Source: an uncultured Oscillospiraceae bacterium (GTDB taxonomy: Bacteria; Bacillota; Clostridia; Christensenellales; CAG-314). From it: a stretch of DNA of 64,000 bases. Positions 6,954 to 15,550 of this stretch are shown here, one piece after another. A program made the position numbers and the translations under genes. Position 1 is the first letter of the stretch. Every line of letters begins with the position of its first letter. A model generated the notes under the pieces. That model worked only from the letters and a program-made list of their open reading frames with translations. It did not search any database and was not told the DNA's origin. The DNA lies in NCBI GenBank assembly GCA_964533825.1, contig CAZHMU010000001.1, positions 185,970 to 249,969 on the forward strand. Direction: 5' to 3'.

Positions 6954-6984
6954 ACAAAAAAATGCACGGACAAAAGCCCGTGCA
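6954..6984 (-). terminator. Intrinsic terminator after the 494-aa orphan gene
   Basis: Stem tgcacgg/ccgtgca (6963-6984). On the minus strand it is followed by a U-run (A-run 6954-6962). It starts 6 nt after the stop at 6990. Confidence 0.6.
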
Positions 6985-6989
6985 AAGTT

Positions 6990-8474
6990 TTAGTTGATTT
7001 TCTGTAAAGTATCGCCACAAAGGTAGGTGTCCAACTTGCAAGTCTCGTCCACGACGCTAACTTGAGCATTATACTTTTTGAGTACAGGCAAAATACCACG
7101 GAAACGATCTAACGCCTTGTTTTTGCTTGGAAGTAGTAAGTCAAAAAACATACCACCATCAGCACAAACACCTTGACCGCACAAAAGAGTTAGATTACTT
7201 TTGTCCTGTTGAACAGAGGTGTTATTGCGGTAGTCAAGATGCCAAAACAAGTCGTTTTGTACAGAGATGACATCTTCCACCTTTGGAATGTATATGTAGC
7301 CAAAGGTGTAGTGAGTTAGCCACAAGGTTGGCGGTCCATCATTTTTGAGATCTTCCTGTGTCATCGTGGAAAGATTTGGCGCATTGGATGCAAGGTGTAC
7401 AATCTTGTCACGATTGTAGAGTGACATGCCAGACATATTTTGACCATCAGTTAGGTCGATGTTGAACATTTGGGGGAAGGGGACTGGGGGTTGCTTGTTG
7501 TAGTAGCGAGTGATGGACTCTACTACGTCTCCGAGAGTGGTAAGAGCAATGTCGCTTTCTATTGCGCGTATGTTGTACCAGGCGTGATACATTTCTTCGC
7601 CAAGAGTACAAGTGAGATAGTTTTCGATATCTTCCAGATACCTGTGCACTTTACGCTCACACTTGCGCATTTTTTCAGGAATAAAAACTCTCAACTCGCC
7701 TTGACTATCTTCCCCACACTCGGTAAAGTAGGCGACCTTGCTCATTTTGTTGAGCTTTGTTTTACCTTTATACTTGTCAACTCCGCCCTTCAAGCAGGGA
7801 ACCATCTTCCAACCATTCTTGACAAACACCGATGGCATATCATTGAAAACTTGCGCTAAAAATTTTATATCAAGGGCGTACTCGGGTACGCTTGCGCACG
7901 CGCGCGCGTACAATACATATTGACCATCCACTACACGACCAAACAGGTCAACGGGAAACATCACATTTGAAAGCTCCTTGTTGAAAATCTTGGACAGCTT
8001 TTTGTCGTTGCGCTTGTCTACGCATTTCTTGATAAGCGCAAATTGTTTTTCTAACTTTGCGCCGATGATGTAGTACAGAATATCATAAAAAATAATTCTA
8101 TCGCCTGGTTGACGACGAAGACAGCACATACCGTCCAAGTCCATTTCGATGTAGTGACCGGCAAGATCCGATGGGTCGTTGCTGTAGGAACTGCAACCAA
8201 CGCACTTTTCAGAAACGTGCTTGCGAAGGATTGTGTCGTACTCGTCCTTGGTGCAGACAAATACATTGCAAGGCGCAAGGTGACTTGGCTCATCAATTTG
8301 TACTTCTGCAGTTGCAATTAAGCTGTCAATAAAGTATGGCGGAATACTGCCAAGTTGCTCGTCACCAACACCAAGCTTTTGCAAAGTAACTGTGCCTTGC
8401 AGTTGCTCGATGGCCTTGTCATTTGGCAAAATATAGTAGTTGAAGTGGTAAAAAACCGCTTTGATTTGTTGCAT
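6990..8474 (-). CDS. Hypothetical Cys-rich protein (494 aa), no recognisable domain
   Basis: Long uninterrupted ORF. ATG 8474 follows CAGGAG at 6-nt spacing (MQQIKAVFYHFNYYILP...). It has its own terminator. Many Cys residues (CVGCSS, MCCLRR, CGQGVCADGG), no TM helix and no motif I can name. Confidence 0.6.
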   Translation of the reverse strand: MQQIKAVFYHFNYYILPNDKAIEQLQGTVTLQKLGVGDEQLGSIPPYFIDSLIATAEVQIDEPSHLAPCNVFVCTKDEYDTILRKHVSEKCVGCSSYSNDPSDLAGHYIEMDLDGMCCLRRQPGDRIIFYDILYYIIGAKLEKQFALIKKCVDKRNDKKLSKIFNKELSNVMFPVDLFGRVVDGQYVLYARACASVPEYALDIKFLAQVFNDMPSVFVKNGWKMVPCLKGGVDKYKGKTKLNKMSKVAYFTECGEDSQGELRVFIPEKMRKCERKVHRYLEDIENYLTCTLGEEMYHAWYNIRAIESDIALTTLGDVVESITRYYNKQPPVPFPQMFNIDLTDGQNMSGMSLYNRDKIVHLASNAPNLSTMTQEDLKNDGPPTLWLTHYTFGYIYIPKVEDVISVQNDLFWHLDYRNNTSVQQDKSNLTLLCGQGVCADGGMFFDLLLPSKNKALDRFRGILPVLKKYNAQVSVVDETCKLDTYLCGDTLQKIN

Positions 8475-8681: not shown

Positions 8682-11141
8682 CTATATTGCACTGTCGCCA
8701 GATCTATGTGTAGAGTTGATAGGCTGCAAAACTTTGCCCACTTGTACGTTTACCAAATCGTATGCTTGAGTCCACTTGTCCAACATATCGTATGGGCAAA
8801 TGCAAGTGTGCTCTTTGTTGTGACGACGGAAGGATTTTTCCGCCTTGCCATAATCGGCATAAATCCAACCATTTGCCATATGAAAACGGTTCCAGCGAAG
8901 GTGCTCTACTCTTTCGCAATACTCGCGCTCGGCAACTTCGTCAACATGGCGGTAGTTAATGGCAAAGCTGTATGCACTGCGATTAGACTCGCGGGTAAAT
9001 GGTGTCACATCCAACCAAATGTCTTTGCGATACACGTCATCTTGCGCAATAAGGATCCAGTTGCCATCCCCATTAGCAAGACTATCGATAATGGATTGTT
9101 CTTTGACGGAAAGTTGACCTTGTGCACTACGCTCAACTTCCATTGCGTGAGAATTGATATTGTACATATAGTTGTACATACTTGCACTTTCGTCATCAAC
9201 AATGTTGTCGTATGACCAAATACTCTCACGGCAACCAAAGGAAACTACATTGAAGTGATCAGCAAAATACTGTTCGTCTTCCGTTGACCAGTTAAGACGA
9301 TAGATGTTCTTTTCATCGCGGATATGTACAAAGATTGTGATAATTTCCTTGTCTAATGTACCACGAGATTTGCCAGTCAAAAGCACCTCGTGCTTGAAAT
9401 CGTCAATCAAGATGTTTGCCATAACAAGGTTATCTTCGTCGTTGCCCATAGATACAACAAAGGAATTGTAGTGAACACTGTCCTTGTCGAAAAGTCCCAG
9501 AGATTTGTCAATACTGTTCATAAAGTCTTGACGCAAGCAGGATACGCGATGGTAGTCGATAATAGGAAATGCCATATCGTCCCAAACTTGGTCACGAGTC
9601 ATTTTGAGCGAAGAAGCTTGTGCCCTATCATAGATGTATTGCAATGCGTCGTTTGATGCACCCTTACCCCATTTGATGAGATCATCGTTAGCAACAGGCA
9701 TATGGTCGACATTATCGGACCTACACAAGAATAATGGGTGAGCATAGGCAAATTCGCCAGAGCGTTTGTCGGCGCCTATATCGTAAACATCGGCAATAAA
9801 TTGCGCTGAAACGTATCTATCATCCACTTTTGTGACATTGGATGTTGCAACAAATATACTCTTTAGTGCATATTGACCAGTTTTGCCAAAGCCAAATATT
9901 GCTGTGCGGTAAACGTTGCCTACACCTGGCATTGTGCTTTGACGGAAACGGTTGTAATCTTGTTTTGTATCGCAAAAATCAAATTTTTCTTGCCAACGGC
10001 TAACAAGGTCATCGCCTGTCAATTTTGCTTCACTCAAAATGTGCAGTTGGATACTGCGCAAAATCATTTGCTTTTTGCTGATTGTTTTGCCGTATTGGTC
10101 AACTACACTATCATTTTCGATGCTGTTTGCCTTGAAAAACTCATCCACAATAGCAGAAATGCGAGTGTTGTAGAACTCGTAGTTGATGTCACCGTGCGTC
10201 AACAAATAATAGTTGACAACCGTAGGGATAGGGCTTGTGTCTACAGTTTTTTTGCTAAATTTACTCAAACATTTTGCGTAGTCGTTGAGCAATGCGTAGA
10301 CATCGTCAAAAATAAAGTTACTGTTGTGGTTTTCCGCTGCGTACAAATTTTCGTCATTACGCAAAGAGAAGATGTGAACCATCTTGTTGTGATTGTATCC
10401 CTTGTCACGTTTTTGACAGCCCGTTTTAGTGTAATTTAGCTTTTTGAGTAAAGAAAGTTCTCTGTCCCTATCGGCAACTTTGCCATAGGACCAATAGATA
10501 TAGCCACGGTCCATAATTTGTCGATGCAGTTCGTTTTTGTGGTCGAAGGCTTCCAACTCGTTGCCCATAAACAAAATTGCATAGCTACCGCGCGCGCCAT
10601 TTTTCTCGGCACTTTCAATGTCAGCAGCCATGACAAGAGCTTCTTCGGTAACGTCAGGAAAGATGTACACTGTATCAAACTTGCGCAAAAATCCACCGAT
10701 TTTGAAAAAGGAATACACTTCGTAGCTGACACAAGTGGACAAAATGAGCAATGTGGAAACACCTGCATAGGCAACAGCACCATAGTACAAAATTTGTGCG
10801 CCAACGTCAATCATGCCCAAAAAATCGTTGGGTGCATAGGTTCCTTCGAAGGTAAGACCACCAATCAAAGCGTATAGTGCAAACAAACCACTGGATATAC
10901 CATCCCAAACGGAATCAAATCCACCGGCATCTTGTTTCACGTACAGTATTGCAACAATAAAACGAGCAATAAAGCTTACGGCAACTGTACCGCCCATGAT
11001 GATAATTTCGTTCATAAATTTGCGCTCTGGATGCTTTTGACGCAGTTTGAAGTAGGCAAGCAAAGTTACCCCCTCCAAAAGTGCCAGTACCAGTACGGCA
11101 AGTATTCCGAAAAGTATGGAAACAAGAATATCTGTCCACAT
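8682..11141 (-). CDS. Membrane protein with about 5 N-terminal TM helices, two Rossmann/RCK(TrkA-N)-like modules and a C-terminal RyR-repeat-like motif
   Basis: 819 aa; RBS AAAGGAG. Residues 1-150 are hydrophobic helices. Residues 412-430 (YRTAIFGFGKTGQYALKSI) form a beta-GxGxxG-alpha unit. FVVSMGNDEDNLVMANILID is TrkA-N-like. Residues 736-800 (EHLRWNRFHMANGWIYADYG...HNKEHTCICPYDMLDKWTQAYDLVNV) follow the bacterial RyR-domain pattern (EHxxW...GWxYG...K.HPxLvPYdeL...YD). Confidence 0.7.
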   Translation of the reverse strand: MWTDILVSILFGILAVLVLALLEGVTLLAYFKLRQKHPERKFMNEIIIMGGTVAVSFIARFIVAILYVKQDAGGFDSVWDGISSGLFALYALIGGLTFEGTYAPNDFLGMIDVGAQILYYGAVAYAGVSTLLILSTCVSYEVYSFFKIGGFLRKFDTVYIFPDVTEEALVMAADIESAEKNGARGSYAILFMGNELEAFDHKNELHRQIMDRGYIYWSYGKVADRDRELSLLKKLNYTKTGCQKRDKGYNHNKMVHIFSLRNDENLYAAENHNSNFIFDDVYALLNDYAKCLSKFSKKTVDTSPIPTVVNYYLLTHGDINYEFYNTRISAIVDEFFKANSIENDSVVDQYGKTISKKQMILRSIQLHILSEAKLTGDDLVSRWQEKFDFCDTKQDYNRFRQSTMPGVGNVYRTAIFGFGKTGQYALKSIFVATSNVTKVDDRYVSAQFIADVYDIGADKRSGEFAYAHPLFLCRSDNVDHMPVANDDLIKWGKGASNDALQYIYDRAQASSLKMTRDQVWDDMAFPIIDYHRVSCLRQDFMNSIDKSLGLFDKDSVHYNSFVVSMGNDEDNLVMANILIDDFKHEVLLTGKSRGTLDKEIITIFVHIRDEKNIYRLNWSTEDEQYFADHFNVVSFGCRESIWSYDNIVDDESASMYNYMYNINSHAMEVERSAQGQLSVKEQSIIDSLANGDGNWILIAQDDVYRKDIWLDVTPFTRESNRSAYSFAINYRHVDEVAEREYCERVEHLRWNRFHMANGWIYADYGKAEKSFRRHNKEHTCICPYDMLDKWTQAYDLVNVQVGKVLQPINSTHRSGDSAI

Positions 11142-11294
11142 ATTGAAAACTCCTTTTGTATGACAAATTAACTATATGTAATTGCAAAACCAGCTTGTTT
11201 TGTAACCGAAAATATTTTTGCAACGTAAATAAAGCTTGCATTGCGCAGGTTTTGCGATAAGTCATTATTCTACGCAAAACTAATTCTATTTGCA

Positions 11295-11331: not shown

Positions 11332-14300
11332 TTAGTACTTTCTCATTGCTTCGTACACTCGTTGTAGTAAGTTGGAACTTTCGTTGTCGTTTGGATCTTT
11401 GTCCAAAAGCATTTGAAGAACCTGCTCAGCCTTTTGCAGCGGCTCTATGCCAGCAAATTCGCCAAGGTAATAACAATAGTTGGCGAGCGATTTCCAATCG
11501 AGTGTATCGTTGGTTATATCAACAAGTTGCAGAGCCATCTCTATTGCTGGGGCAAAGTTTTCAATTGCCTCATCCAGCTGGCCCCTAAAGTAGTAGAAAA
11601 GACCCAACTGACAGCAAGCCTCAGCATGGAAACGAGTGGCCTTGATGTAAGATTTATCTACACTACCAAATCCATCGTCTTTGGGAGCGATCATACTGCG
11701 ACCTTGCTCATACAGTTGTTTTGCAATGTTGATGTACTCAATAAAGTTTTTACTGTCGTCAAGGTGCATATAGCAACGTGCAAGGTTCTCGCAATCGCAA
11801 GCGCAGGCAATGAGATTGCAGGCAGTACCATCTTGTTGAGCAATGGCAAGGCTATTAGATACAACCTGCAAAGCTTGTTCAAGTTGCGTTTCGTAGTCTT
11901 GCTCATCTTGATGCATTTCCGCCATCTTGCGACAAACATCCGCAACGACACTTTGATCGCACTGGCCGCTTTCCACAAAATTGTTAGCAAATTGCAATGC
12001 TTTGTCAAAGTACAATTTTGCTTGGTCCTTTTCGCCAAGCGCAAGACAACTTTTGGCAATGTTGCAGTAGATTTCTGGTATAAACTCAACATCAGCATAG
12101 CCAATAGCGCAAAGTTCATCCATGTGAGCAACGAGAGTATCCGCTGCCTCAATTTGACATTGCTTGGCTTTGTTGTATTGTTGCAAGTCGGTATACAAAC
12201 CACCCAACATATAATTGACTGTGTACAAACCAAGAAGATCCGACATTTGAGCGTTTTGCGCCATAGACTTGTAAATGGTCAGCTCTTGTTGGTAGTAGTC
12301 TACAGCCTTATCCAACTCGTCTAAATCGTAGTAGAACTCAGCAATAGCGGTCAACAATCCTGTGTAGGAGTTGCGCACCTTCACTGAGTCGGCACGATCC
12401 AAAAGACCCTGTGCTATATCCAAACCGTTCGTAAAGCATTGCAAAGCCCTGTCATCATCTTGTTGGTATGTGTGATAGTGAACGCCCAACTGCTTGAGAT
12501 CCACAACACATTGACGCCAGCTATCGACAGAATCGTGTTTTTGGGCGTAATCAAGGTCAATCTCGAAAGCTTTTAGATAGTATTCTAACGCTTTGTCGTC
12601 AGCCTTGCCATCGCACAAACCTGCCAGAACATAGTAGAACGGAGACATTTGCATTTGAGTGTGCTCATCTTTGAGTTCATCGTAGACACCCAACAAAACT
12701 TGCAAGCCCTTTTCATAAGACTGTTTACACTCGGGCCTTTCGTCAGCATATACATTGCCCAAACGATAGTAGCAATCAGCCAGCAAAACACGGAACTTTG
12801 GCGCTGTATTACTTTCGACAAGACTCAACAACAATTTTTCCGCTTTGAGCAACATTTCGATTGCACGTTCGGTATTGCCAATCTCGTCGTACATAATGCC
12901 AGCGGAGATGTAGCAGGAGGAAAGTTGATATTTTGTTTCCCCAATGGGAACGTCCTCCACTATTGTTTCGCGCAAATACACCGCTTTTAGTATGTAGTCT
13001 TCAGCATCTTGATAGTTGTCCAAAATGCGAGCATTGTCCGAAAGACTTTGCAAAGTCCAGGCAAGTGTTTGACGAGCATCAAGGCTGTCATTTTGATCGG
13101 TAAGTTGGATGGAAATATCCAATGATTTTAGATGCCAATCGCGTTCGCCGACAAAGTCCTCTTGCATATGACACAAATCCGCCATGCGCGAATAGGCCAC
13201 GAGCAACCAGTCTTGCGACTCAGCATCATTTTGCTCTTGGTTGAGTTTTTCTGCAATGGCCAATGCTTGTGTTGCCACTTGTTGTGCCTTGGGTATGTCG
13301 CAGGTGCTTTTGCATACATCAAACATATCAGTGTAGCATTGCATGAAAGAGAACAAATACTCATCGTCTTTAGAGATATCCTTGATAAGATTTAGTATTG
13401 TCAAGCGCGCTTCGTAGTACTTCATTGCCTCTTCGAAGTTACGCAAATCTTCGTGACATCGTCCCAAATTGCAATAGCAGGTTACTAAATCGTTGTACGT
13501 TTCTACATTTTGAGATTTTTCCGCCAACTGTTCAGCATAGTGCAAGCCCCAACGATAGTTTTCCAAAGCATCTGCGTAGGCAAATGTCTTGCGATACATT
13601 TCGCCAATAAAGTTGTAAGCATTGCAAAGCATACTGGCAGGTAGGTATCTTTCTGGCTCGGCTTTAGACCAATCATTGCAAAAGGCTTTAAGTTGTTGAT
13701 AAATTTCGATAGATTTTTCATATCGAAGCAAGGCATTGTACAAATCTGCAAGAGAAATCAACTCTGTTACGTAATCGCATTTTGTATCATAGTCAGCATT
13801 GTCAATATCAACAGTGAGCGTATCTACCAAGCGTTGTTGCCACTCTATAGCTTTGTTTACGTCACGCTCCACACCCTTGCCCTGCTTGTACATATGCACA
13901 ATGGTTTTATAAGAGTCAACGTGGCTTTTTTCTGCACAATAAGTGAGCATATCAAGCGCACGTGCGTGGTCAACTTCTACATCGATACCATCCAAATACG
14001 CCAAAGCAAGCAAATGGTAGCGAGGTAAATCGTCCTTAAGCTTGTTGTTACGCGGGAAAAAGCAAGACAACAGCTGCATAAGCATTTGTTCATCCGCTTC
14101 TTTGATTATTTGGGGCAGATTTTCGTACTGGCTTGCAAGTAGCGAGTAGTCAGTCAAAGCCATTTCTACAGGCAAAACAAGTTTACCAGACTTGACGGCC
14201 ATTGGATACTCCACCGCTTGAACATAGTTATCCTCGCACACAAGGTTTGGTGTGACCGCAAGCAAAAAAAGTTGGCTTTTGTTCAATGCATCGCCAATTG

Positions 14301-14931
14301 CGTTGTTGAAGTCCTCGCCAGGCACAAGGTACTCGTCGTACCAAATTGCCACGTCACGACAAGCTTCACTTTTGTGGATGAGTCGCATCAGACGTTGCGC
14401 GTGAGCGCGGTCCTTTTTGCGATAGCTCAAAAAGATGTAGGAACGAAAAGCAGCACGGATGACATTAGCCTTTTCGTCGCCTACAAGCACACTACCCAAA
14501 AAGCTTTGCAGTTTTTCTTGATAGGAGATTGCCGTTTCGTCCTTTTGATGTTTTTCAAGATATTGCGAATTGCCACAAACACTGTTGAAAAGCTGATCAA
14601 GACCTTGTTCTTGCATCAAAGGCAAAACAGGGATATGGCGTTTGATGGCAATATGGTAGTCAGCAATGCCCTTGTTGTGACCGAAAAGCAGTTTGGATGT
14701 AACTGGCATAACAAATAGTTGCATATCCGACAGACGACTTTCCCACTCTGCCGTATCTCCAGAGCCATCTGGTTGCTCATCGTAGAAAACGGTGCAGTTT
14801 ACCAGATTCAAAATTTCCTTTGACACACTTTCAAAATAGGTAGCAAAGTCGTCAGGATGACAGCAAAAGTAAACTCTTGGCTTGCCTTGTGGAGAAACAT
14901 CTTGACCGCGTGTCTTGAAATTGAGTAGCAT
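11332..14931 (-). CDS. Tandem TIR-domain protein fused to Sel1 and a long TPR-like repeat array
   Basis: 1199 aa; RBS AAGGAG. Residues 164-257 (YIFLSYRKKDRAHAQ...VAIWYDEYLVPGEDFNNAIGDAL..SQLFLLAVTPNLV...NYVQAVEYPMA) fit TIR_2. Residues 18-108 (RVYFCCHPDDF...VFYDE...LFVMPVTSKLL...IADYHIA) form a degenerate TIR-like copy. Residues about 300-350 (YLDGIDVEVDHARAL...MYKQGKGVERDVNKAIEWQQRL) are Sel1 repeats. The rest is helical TPR-like repeats. No Walker A motif seen. Confidence 0.85.
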   Translation of the reverse strand: MLLNFKTRGQDVSPQGKPRVYFCCHPDDFATYFESVSKEILNLVNCTVFYDEQPDGSGDTAEWESRLSDMQLFVMPVTSKLLFGHNKGIADYHIAIKRHIPVLPLMQEQGLDQLFNSVCGNSQYLEKHQKDETAISYQEKLQSFLGSVLVGDEKANVIRAAFRSYIFLSYRKKDRAHAQRLMRLIHKSEACRDVAIWYDEYLVPGEDFNNAIGDALNKSQLFLLAVTPNLVCEDNYVQAVEYPMAVKSGKLVLPVEMALTDYSLLASQYENLPQIIKEADEQMLMQLLSCFFPRNNKLKDDLPRYHLLALAYLDGIDVEVDHARALDMLTYCAEKSHVDSYKTIVHMYKQGKGVERDVNKAIEWQQRLVDTLTVDIDNADYDTKCDYVTELISLADLYNALLRYEKSIEIYQQLKAFCNDWSKAEPERYLPASMLCNAYNFIGEMYRKTFAYADALENYRWGLHYAEQLAEKSQNVETYNDLVTCYCNLGRCHEDLRNFEEAMKYYEARLTILNLIKDISKDDEYLFSFMQCYTDMFDVCKSTCDIPKAQQVATQALAIAEKLNQEQNDAESQDWLLVAYSRMADLCHMQEDFVGERDWHLKSLDISIQLTDQNDSLDARQTLAWTLQSLSDNARILDNYQDAEDYILKAVYLRETIVEDVPIGETKYQLSSCYISAGIMYDEIGNTERAIEMLLKAEKLLLSLVESNTAPKFRVLLADCYYRLGNVYADERPECKQSYEKGLQVLLGVYDELKDEHTQMQMSPFYYVLAGLCDGKADDKALEYYLKAFEIDLDYAQKHDSVDSWRQCVVDLKQLGVHYHTYQQDDDRALQCFTNGLDIAQGLLDRADSVKVRNSYTGLLTAIAEFYYDLDELDKAVDYYQQELTIYKSMAQNAQMSDLLGLYTVNYMLGGLYTDLQQYNKAKQCQIEAADTLVAHMDELCAIGYADVEFIPEIYCNIAKSCLALGEKDQAKLYFDKALQFANNFVESGQCDQSVVADVCRKMAEMHQDEQDYETQLEQALQVVSNSLAIAQQDGTACNLIACACDCENLARCYMHLDDSKNFIEYINIAKQLYEQGRSMIAPKDDGFGSVDKSYIKATRFHAEACCQLGLFYYFRGQLDEAIENFAPAIEMALQLVDITNDTLDWKSLANYCYYLGEFAGIEPLQKAEQVLQMLLDKDPNDNESSNLLQRVYEAMRKY

Positions 14932-15348: not shown

Positions 15349-15422
15349 GGCACCATAGCCAAGTGGTAAGGCAGAGCTCTGCAAAAGCTTCACCCCCAGT
15401 CCGAATCTGGGTGGTGCCTCCA
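15349..15422 (+). tRNA. tRNA-Cys (GCA)
   Basis: Cloverleaf by hand: acceptor ggcacca/tggtgcc, anticodon stem gagct/agctt, loop cTGCAaa, T arm cccag-tccgaat-ctggg, encoded CCA. Confidence 0.92.
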
Positions 15423-15463
15423 AAACAAGCGTAGAGTGAAAAGCACTTTACGCTTTTATTTTT

Positions 15464-15550
15464 GCTGGTATGGCGGAATAGGCAGACGCAAGGGACTTAA
15501 AATCCCTCGGTAGAAATATCGTATCGGTTCGACCCCGATTACCAGCACCA
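15464..15550 (+). tRNA. tRNA-Leu (TAA), type II with long variable arm
   Basis: Acceptor gctggta/taccagc, D arm gcg-gaataggcaga-cgc, anticodon stem aggga/tccct with loop cTTAAaa, 15-nt variable arm, T arm atcgg-ttcgacc-ccgat, A73, encoded CCA. Confidence 0.92.

Follow-up and report, generated by a model that had tools for sequence, protein, structure and literature searches.

What use does a bacterium make of a ryanodine receptor (RyR) repeat that is attached to a membrane protein? The question is raised by a gene of an uncultured Oscillospiraceae bacterium (GTDB lineage Bacteria; Bacillota; Clostridia; Christensenellales; CAG-314), which lies within the 64,000-nucleotide stretch of DNA that was analysed here and is hereafter called the window (NCBI GenBank assembly GCA_964533825.1, contig CAZHMU010000001.1, positions 185,970 to 249,969 of the forward strand; positions below count from its first nucleotide). 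The open reading frame (8682..11141, minus strand) encodes 819 amino acids, is much longer than any other frame at the locus and is under strong purifying selection, with a ratio of nonsynonymous to synonymous substitution rates (dN/dS) of 0.06-0.09 against five orthologues. An earlier reading of the letters of the window, made without database searches (the sequence-only reading), had taken its product for a multi-helix membrane protein with two Rossmann modules and a C-terminal RyR motif; the strings that it quoted are all found in the translation, namely EHLRWNRFH...YDLVNV (residues 746-799), GFGKTG (417-422) and NDEDNLVMANILID (567-580). Below, we argue that the 819-amino-acid protein probably represents a new kind of membrane effector that is activated by a signal, and that the chances are about even that it fulfils this function in a TIR-based signalling module like those of Thoeris.

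Linkage to TIR genes in part of the family

The strongest functional clue to the 819-amino-acid protein, one that had gone unnoticed in the sequence-only reading, is the recurrent linkage of its gene to genes for TIR proteins. The protein has 22 close relatives, and an exhaustive profile search returned 206 cluster representatives at E<=1e-30 and 611 at E<=1e-10, the majority of which span the full architecture; at 50% identity, the family comprises more than 200 clusters. Its named members are all annotated as 'hypothetical protein' and come from gut metagenome-assembled genomes (MAGs) of Clostridia or Christensenellales. A further, word-indexed search with a wider alignment added zero members, and a scan of viral contigs found no relatives of the protein.

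Gene neighbourhoods were examined at 46 loci (labelled below with L and a number), which represent about 26 lineages at 55% identity, and linked TIRs were identified by Pfam and phmmer. A TIR_2 gene is located upstream, on the same strand, in six of these lineages and comes in five architectures (Table 1). Elsewhere in several hundred kilobases of flanks, no TIR was found. In the window, 190 nucleotides separate the stop codon of the gene for a TIR-TPR protein from the start of the 819-amino-acid gene on the same strand; in this protein, the TIR_2 domain (residues 166-258, E=1.4e-8) is followed, from about residue 320, by a TPR array that matches multiple TPR families. A glutamate of the catalytic type is common to all linked TIRs, being E241 in the TIR-TPR protein, and its column is invariant across seven family-linked TIRs; this glutamate is the catalytic residue of TIR NADases. 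The ThsB-like matches obtained with PADLOC are weak, both for the TIR-TPR protein and for the linked TIR proteins in general. In a MAG of Anaeroplasmataceae (L029, 7872-10726), a 336-amino-acid TIR is followed by a homologue that is split into a 203-amino-acid membrane part and a 345-amino-acid part with Rossmann and RyR domains; together, these form a compact version with three genes.

A second recurrent partner is a small gene of about 95 codons for a canonical RyR protein (one of them matches Pfam with E=2.6e-36). In L003, L018, L037 and L045, this gene is the direct upstream neighbour of the family gene, and in L022 and L041 it precedes the TIR gene; none adjoins the 819-amino-acid gene of the window. 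Upstream of the family genes of L003 (5618-9987) and L041 (1-3871), both of them distant members, there is a common cassette, in which the small RyR gene is accompanied by genes for an AAA+/peptidase M41 (FtsH-like) protein of about 1,170 amino acids and a YbjN-like protein of about 157 amino acids; the AAA+/M41 protein is unusually long. In L044, a DUF4062-NPHP3-like protein is encoded 2.3 kb upstream of the family gene.

The RyR domain and its ligand residues

Is the C-terminal RyR domain real? Searched alone against Pfam, NCBIfam, PADLOC and PHROGs, the 819-amino-acid protein yields just a sub-threshold RyR match and one PHROG of unknown function. The RyR match (PF02026) has E=0.021 and 15.5 bits, below the gathering cut-off of 27.4 bits, and the matches of the single sequence to RyR domains in the PDB are weak. 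The family gives a clearer answer. Two alignments were used, a close one of 17 relatives, drawn from the 22 close ones collected, and a wide one of 50 diverse members with 21-44% identity. Pfam RyR matches 13 of the 17 close relatives (best E=1.7e-7) and 22 of the 50 diverse ones, and the family profile retrieves the solved RyR domains 6uhi (E=1.8e-11), 3nrt of Bacteroides thetaiotaomicron (1.1e-5) and 6uag (1.6e-4). The domain claimed by the sequence-only reading, sub-threshold for the sequence taken singly, is thereby significant at the level of the family.

That reading had also held that the function of RyR domains is unknown, which no longer applies: in two independent preprints of 2026, phage RyR-domain proteins were found to bind or hydrolyse 2'cADPR, 3'cADPR and cADPR, the isomers of cyclic ADP-ribose (cADPR) that are the products of Thoeris TIRs, via a set of H/W/H/D residues (PMC13232231; doi 10.64898/2026.06.04.730250). 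These residues are H75, W78, H100 and D117 in RyDEP, and H129/W132, H154 and D171 in RyR Tad (PMC13232231; doi 10.64898/2026.06.04.730250). Both works also cite the binding of adenine nucleotides by the R12 domain of RyR3. In the 819-amino-acid protein, the candidate ligand residues are H747, W750, H778 and D795, all invariant in the close alignment. In the wide alignment, E746, W750 and G758 are invariant, and H747, R749, R752, H778 and D795 are at least 90% conserved. The spacing from H747 to W750 (+3) and from H778 to D795 (+17) is the same as in RyDEP, and the distance from W750 to H778 is 28 instead of the 22 of RyDEP because of a 6-residue insertion. Since the RyR matches at the family level are accompanied by retention of the ligand residues and of their spacing, the C-terminal domain is genuine but divergent, and its nucleotide pocket is predicted to be intact. 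In the literature searched, we found no description of a host RyR-domain effector or receptor.

Canonical standalone RyR domains are exemplified by the 'putative ryanodine receptor' of B. thetaiotaomicron (PDB 3nrt and 4n05; 6uag is another such chain), and near-identical motifs are present in the open reading frames of about 95 codons beside the family genes in L003, L018, L022, L037, L041 and L045. Compared with these small bacterial proteins, the repeat of the 819-amino-acid protein is more divergent and carries the 6-residue insertion; it reads HTCICPYD where the small RyR proteins have HPCLVPYD.

Two RCK-like Rossmann domains

Upstream of the RyR domain, the sequence-only reading had placed a double Rossmann, RCK-like region with TrkA_N-like modules. 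The AlphaFold2 model of the protein (predicted local distance difference test, pLDDT, 82.9; predicted template-modelling score, pTM, 0.82) shows beta-alpha-beta order in the double Rossmann region. In domain B (Table 1), the G417-F-G-K-T-G422 loop, D451/D454 and G566-x-D568-x-x-N571 are invariant or near-invariant in both alignments. A GxGxxG loop, an acidic residue after beta-2 and GxDxxN after beta-4 are the hallmarks of KTN/TrkA_N domains. In a Foldseek comparison with the PDB, the top match was GsuK (E=1.9e-5, probability 1.0), followed by Slo1 and Slo2.2, with probabilities of 0.97-1.0 at TM-scores of just 0.21-0.42; a second tier, with E=0.015-0.1, consists of two-Rossmann dehydrogenases (alanine and D-2-hydroxyacid dehydrogenases) and transhydrogenase dI. 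A fold search of BFVD gave weak matches, among them a phage K+-channel protein and phage RyR proteins, none at E<=0.001. The TrkA_N profile of Pfam found nothing in the 819-amino-acid protein (searched to E<=1), in the close alignment (17 members, E<=0.1) or in the wide one (50 members, E<=0.01), and the sole link to this profile comes from L029, where the split homologue has a weak, sub-threshold match (E=0.0026; 18.5 bits, with a cut-off of 23.8). The double Rossmann fold is supported by the AlphaFold2 model, the Foldseek matches, at their low TM-scores, suggest a likeness to tandem-RCK units, and the resemblance to TrkA_N is one of motifs and fold, with no counterpart among the Pfam matches of the protein.

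The nucleotide specificity of GFGKTG had been regarded as ambiguous, with a Walker A motif of P-loop NTPases as the other candidate. Position 420 is occupied by K, D, E, R, A, S or N, with G417, G419 and G422 conserved, and in the model the string forms the beta1-loop-alphaA element of a Rossmann fold. With a residue so variable across relatives in the place of the Walker A lysine (K420), that motif is rejected, and the ambiguity is settled in favour of a Rossmann site.

The N-terminal membrane domain

The membrane segment is real, with the difference that its hydrophobic helices number four, not about five as had been proposed; by hydropathy and the AlphaFold2 model, they extend over residues 2-36, 38-72, 78-97 and 113-138 and are followed by an amphipathic helix (140-147). 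Across 43 relatives, the net charges are +3.1 in the first loop, -1.6 in the second, -3.0 in the third, which is almost devoid of K and R, and +1.7 after helix 4. The positive-inside rule puts both flanks of helix 3 outside, which points to a topology of three transmembrane helices and a putative re-entrant helix-loop (helix 3) carrying GGLTFEG. This stretch (family consensus Y..IGGLtFEG) is the best-conserved motif of the membrane domain: G94, F98 and G100 are invariant in the close alignment, and F98 is at least 90% conserved among the 50 members of the wide one. As judged from the sequence, the GGLTFEG loop may form a pore, and the layout would then resemble an M1-pore loop-M2 unit that directly precedes regulatory domains. 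Pfam families of ion channels (Ion_trans-type, Ion_trans_2) have no match in the 819-amino-acid protein or in 67 full-length members of the family. The sequence-only reading had proposed a ligand-gated membrane or channel-regulatory protein; the architecture of membrane helices, two RCK-like Rossmann domains and a RyR pocket supports this proposal, and channel activity is what we infer from it.

A proposed Thoeris-like module and its alternatives

When the gene order (TIR, optional small RyR, transmembrane-RCK-RyR) is considered together with the preprints on phage RyR proteins and with the Thoeris survey (doi 10.64898/2025.12.03.692087), a Thoeris-like module is the most economical explanation. 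In such a module, the RyR repeat would serve as the signal receptor and the transmembrane/RCK body as the output. The TPR array of the TIR-TPR protein would sense a trigger, whereupon this protein would turn NAD+ into a signal derived from ADP-ribose (ADPR), either a cADPR isomer or a relative of it. The signal would occupy the pocket formed by H747, W750, H778 and D795, and the single RyR repeats of different subunits would probably pair, as in the dimers of RyDEP and RyR Tad. Binding might then rearrange an RCK-like ring, so that a pore, to which helix 4 and the putative re-entrant loop with its conserved GGLTFEG would contribute, opens or the membrane is otherwise perturbed, with depolarisation of the cell or growth arrest as the presumed outcome. 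The Rossmann site of domain B could receive a second input, e.g. NAD(H) or ADP. In other lineages, the small standalone RyR protein may act as a buffer for the signal, break it down or form a pair with the RyR repeat of the large protein. As candidate ligands, NAD+, ADPR and the cADPR isomers, which were named in the sequence-only reading, are well chosen.

A number of observations weigh against this explanation. Concerning the protein itself, there is no canonical TVGYG-like K+ filter, a comparison of the family profile with MthK (sequence verified against 1lnq) by hhalign gave no similarity (probability 0.1%), the TM-scores of the Foldseek matches are low (0.23 and 0.41), and no model of PADLOC or NCBIfam, those of known Thoeris effectors included, matches the 819-amino-acid protein. 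Concerning the genome, the gene has housekeeping neighbours (infC-rpmI-rplT, DegV, FakA) and no classical defence island around it, and about 20 of the 26 lineages have no TIR within the flanks, some of the contigs being short. In L001, a 40-amino-acid remnant of the C-terminus of TIR-TPR (9607-9726, 45% identity) just upstream of the orthologue indicates a recent deletion of the TIR gene, and the RyR gene that was left behind is still constrained (dN/dS 0.057). In the Christensenellales relatives in L016, L017, L024, L025, L040, L045 and L046, the gene has similar surroundings: a TraG/VirD4-like coupling protein and a protein of about 302 amino acids are encoded at all of these loci, and two ClpP paralogues at all but L046. 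This shared gene order looks like vertical inheritance; it could be this or reflect a further functional link. Finally, large TIR-STAND and TIR-TPR proteins can be stand-alone, NAD+-depleting effectors, and the Thoeris survey excluded them (doi 10.64898/2025.12.03.692087).

Several of these observations are shared by the best of the alternatives, namely a housekeeping role of the 819-amino-acid protein that is specific to its lineage: in Clostridia of the Christensenellales type, it would work as an ion channel or regulate transport, gated by ATP/ADP, NAD(H) or ADPR via its Rossmann and RyR pockets, with the adjacency of TIR being secondary (e.g. a coupling to NAD+ status) or incidental. Such a role would fit the lack of an adjacent TIR in most lineages, the retained synteny with ClpP, TraG-like and ribosomal genes, and the purifying selection on the RyR gene after the loss of TIR-TPR in L001; adenine nucleotides are bound by R12 of RyR3, as cited in both preprints of 2026 (PMC13232231; doi 10.64898/2026.06.04.730250), and NAD+ and ADP by RCK rings of the GsuK type (PDB 4gx2). 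We nevertheless consider it unlikely: TIR genes are very few per genome, so that five TIR architectures found upstream, on the same strand, in six lineages are far above chance, and the small RyR partners together with the tandem paralogues (see below) suggest a fast-evolving module of the conflict type.

With the linkage to TIR genes taken at face value, the membrane protein could also be an enzyme that terminates the signal or serves NAD salvage. Its RyR domain would then be a RyDEP-like glycosidase that cleaves TIR-made cADPR isomers to ADPR with the dyad H747/D795 and so curbs self-intoxication by the neighbouring TIR, with the Rossmann domains processing the nucleotide products. The dyad does correspond to catalytic H75 and D117 of RyDEP, but most of the tested RyDEP homologues with the same residues bind the signal without cleaving it (PMC13232231), and a hydrolase needs neither a conserved multi-helix membrane domain nor an RCK-like tandem, which makes this alternative improbable. 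Still less probable is an enzyme without a pore that is anchored in the membrane, acts as an NAD(P)-dependent oxidoreductase or like a transhydrogenase and is regulated through its RyR domain, a role for which the GxGxxG...D site and the second tier of Foldseek matches might speak, since the best Foldseek matches are tandem-RCK channels with a probability of 1.0, dehydrogenase families of Pfam are undetected in the 67 members, and the invariant columns contain no conserved catalytic set of His, Arg and Lys. For the function of the 819-amino-acid protein, we retain the role of an effector in a Thoeris-like module as the working explanation.

Comparison with known systems

The combination of a TIR with a transmembrane or ion-channel effector is an established theme of Thoeris, where effectors are of many types (doi 10.64898/2025.12.03.692087). 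Membrane effectors have been described for type II (ThsC, transmembrane-Macro), type V (ThsF, DUF2270), type VI (ThsG, in the transmembrane-bearing forms of DUF6650), type VII (ThsH, SLATT) and type X (ThsK, 'ion channel') (doi 10.64898/2025.12.03.692087). As in these systems, the TIR gene of the window adjoins a gene for a membrane protein with a cytoplasmic nucleotide-binding module, and the expected logic is the same, with an ADPR-type signal made by the TIR activating a membrane-damaging effector (doi 10.64898/2025.12.03.692087). Unlike the known effectors, the 819-amino-acid protein has a RyR/R12 domain as its presumed sensor and a body with two RCK-like Rossmann domains. Furthermore, its TIR partners are large fusions with TPR, STAND or HD in place of the short ThsB, and the linkage is seen in part of the family. 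The Thoeris survey, with those of its tables that were searched, contains no mention of RyR or R12 (doi 10.64898/2025.12.03.692087).

With RyDEP and RyR Tad, the protein shares a helical domain of the R12 type and the H...W / H / D ligand residues (PMC13232231; doi 10.64898/2026.06.04.730250). Those are anti-Thoeris proteins of phages that act as dimers (PMC13232231; doi 10.64898/2026.06.04.730250); they are small, soluble and devoted to counter-defence, whereas the 819-amino-acid protein is a membrane protein encoded in a host chromosome beside a TIR. The succession of a transmembrane domain and two Rossmann-type regulatory domains with GxGxxG...D and GxDxxN motifs is found in GsuK, MthK, Slo1/BK and Slo2.2, and the loop charges suggest a topology similar to M1-P-M2, to which one helix would be added. 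These ligand-gated tandem-RCK K+ channels differ in that the 819-amino-acid protein has large insertions in both Rossmann domains, an extra RyR domain and no TVGYG. In the animal ryanodine receptors, the same ligand residues are found in the RyR repeat known as Repeat12. They are cation channels, and their modulation by cADPR has been reported. In the window, the channel-like protein with its RyR repeat is encoded beside a TIR, a putative synthase of the cADPR type; the likeness to the animal receptors is limited to the one repeat, the remaining part of the 819-amino-acid protein being unrelated to the channel body of RyR/IP3R.

Gene start, neighbours and variants of the family

The coordinates of the features are collected in Table 1. 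The ATG start codon of the 819-amino-acid gene (11141) is preceded, at a distance of eight bases, by a ribosome-binding site AAAGGAG (11150-11156). Of the extended -10 promoter that the sequence-only reading had ascribed to the gene, the motif TGG-TATAAT is present and its promoter function is putative; it does not appear in the list of the consensus promoter scan because it has no -35 element. The proposed hairpins of the 154-nucleotide 5' untranslated region did not hold up: they are at chance level, the folding of the leader being no better than that of shuffled sequences (z=-0.06), and no Rfam family matches it. A terminator scan found no canonical terminator between the three co-oriented genes (TIR-TPR, 819-amino-acid and 494-amino-acid), the sole strong one of this block being the hairpin just 3' of the last gene. 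Given the -10 motif in the spacer and the lack of a terminator between the genes, read-through from the upstream gene in combination with an internal promoter for the 819-amino-acid gene is plausible.

Table 1. Positions of features in the window, and TIR genes linked to the family at the loci examined
Feature	Position or locus	Strand	Basis or remark
819-amino-acid transmembrane/double-Rossmann (RCK-like)/RyR gene	8682..11141	(-)	open reading frame list, orthologues, AlphaFold2
Membrane domain, residues 1-147	10701..11141	(-)	hydropathy and AlphaFold2 secondary structure
Conserved motif IGGLTFEGT (residues 91-101) between helices 3 and 4	10839..10871	(-)	candidate pore/re-entrant loop
Rossmann-like domain A, residues ~155-405, no glycine-rich loop	9927..10679	(-)	AlphaFold2 beta-alpha-beta order, Foldseek
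Rossmann domain B, residues ~408-650, KTN-like motifs	9192..9920	(-)	conserved columns
Single RyR (R12-type) repeat, residues ~736-808	8718..8936	(-)	Pfam, family profile, conserved residues
Extended -10-like motif TGG-TATAAT	11304-11296	(-)	within 190-nucleotide spacer after TIR-TPR stop codon; read from sequence
TIR-TPR gene, 1199 amino acids, adjoins 819-amino-acid gene upstream	11332..14931	(-)	Pfam TIR_2 and TPR
Downstream gene, 494 amino acids (516 from upstream ATG, to 8540), unknown fold	6990..8474	(-)	homologue search, AlphaFold2
Intrinsic-terminator-like hairpin	6963..6984	(-)	9-bp stem, 6 GC pairs, then T-run; just 3' of 494-amino-acid gene
Linked TIR-TPR	window, L002, L011, L012		160-190 nucleotides upstream
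Linked TIR-STAND (AAA_16/NACHT)	L022, L041		13-nucleotide gap in L041
Linked TIR-HD	L018, L026		30-nucleotide gap in L026
Linked 350-amino-acid TIR	L027		2.9 kb upstream
Linked 336-amino-acid ThsB-like TIR	L029		3 nucleotides upstream of split homologue

The TIR-TPR protein has an extra N-terminal domain (residues 1-150, 14482-14931 on the minus strand, with the string …RVYFCCHPDD…) ahead of TIR_2, which is kept in L002, L011 and L012. This domain of about 150 amino acids has no Pfam match, and a phmmer search of the N-terminus against the PDB gave nothing; it could be a second, degenerate TIR-like or a flavodoxin-like domain. The 494-amino-acid protein has conserved Cys pairs; its homologues, which all have at least 53% identity and belong to the same clade, are always encoded directly downstream of the RyR gene, also in L001; it matches no families, and its AlphaFold2 model (pLDDT 74.8) has no Foldseek match. 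The three-gene block is flanked by tRNA-Cys/tRNA-Leu (15349-15550, plus strand) and FakA on one side, and by DegV and infC-rpmI-rplT on the other. The interval between FakA and infC varies among close relatives, with a PI-PLC gene in L001, L011 and L012 and none in the window; this variation of gene content suggests a variable hotspot.

Some members of the family depart from the common layout. Tandem paralogues are found in L027 (7647-13120) and L028 (7751-12307), the upstream copy having 744-763 amino acids, no GGLTFEG and a different N-terminal membrane region. The remote members P0104 and P0110 are fused at their C-termini to peptidase M20/M28 domains, and a separate M20 peptidase is encoded near the family gene in L003. 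In L018 (12550-18745) and L026 (12523-18822), the family gene is followed, with overlaps or short gaps, by genes for a protein of 828/842 amino acids without matches and then for one of 1,222/1,242 amino acids, which has an N-terminal Tubulin_2 domain (E=1.9e-59). The source of L012, Candidatus Fimimonas (NCBI taxid 2840648), is filed under Myxococcaceae in the NCBI taxonomy; related records and its gene content (DegV, FakA) look like those of Clostridia.

Implications

The RyR repeat had no known function until 2026, and its phage versions are now shown to bind the cADPR isomers that TIRs make, or to destroy them. Systems that couple TIR-based signalling to a membrane effector are of a known kind; what would be new here is a host-side role for the repeat. 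If the effector role in a Thoeris-like module is correct, the family would provide a new sensor domain for TIR signalling and a new class of effectors with a body like that of RCK channels, and the RyR-domain sponges of phages would be explained as mimicry of a host receptor. It would also offer a small, tractable bacterial model for the direct action of cADPR-type molecules on a RyR repeat that is attached to a channel, and a bacterial parallel to the long-debated cADPR-RyR axis of animals. More tentatively, and with some doubt on our part, the family may embody a complete bacterial pathway, from a TIR-made signal of the cADPR type via a RyR receptor to an RCK-type channel, which would represent a new type of Thoeris and a prokaryotic counterpart, possibly the evolutionary source, of the link between cADPR and the ryanodine receptor in animals.

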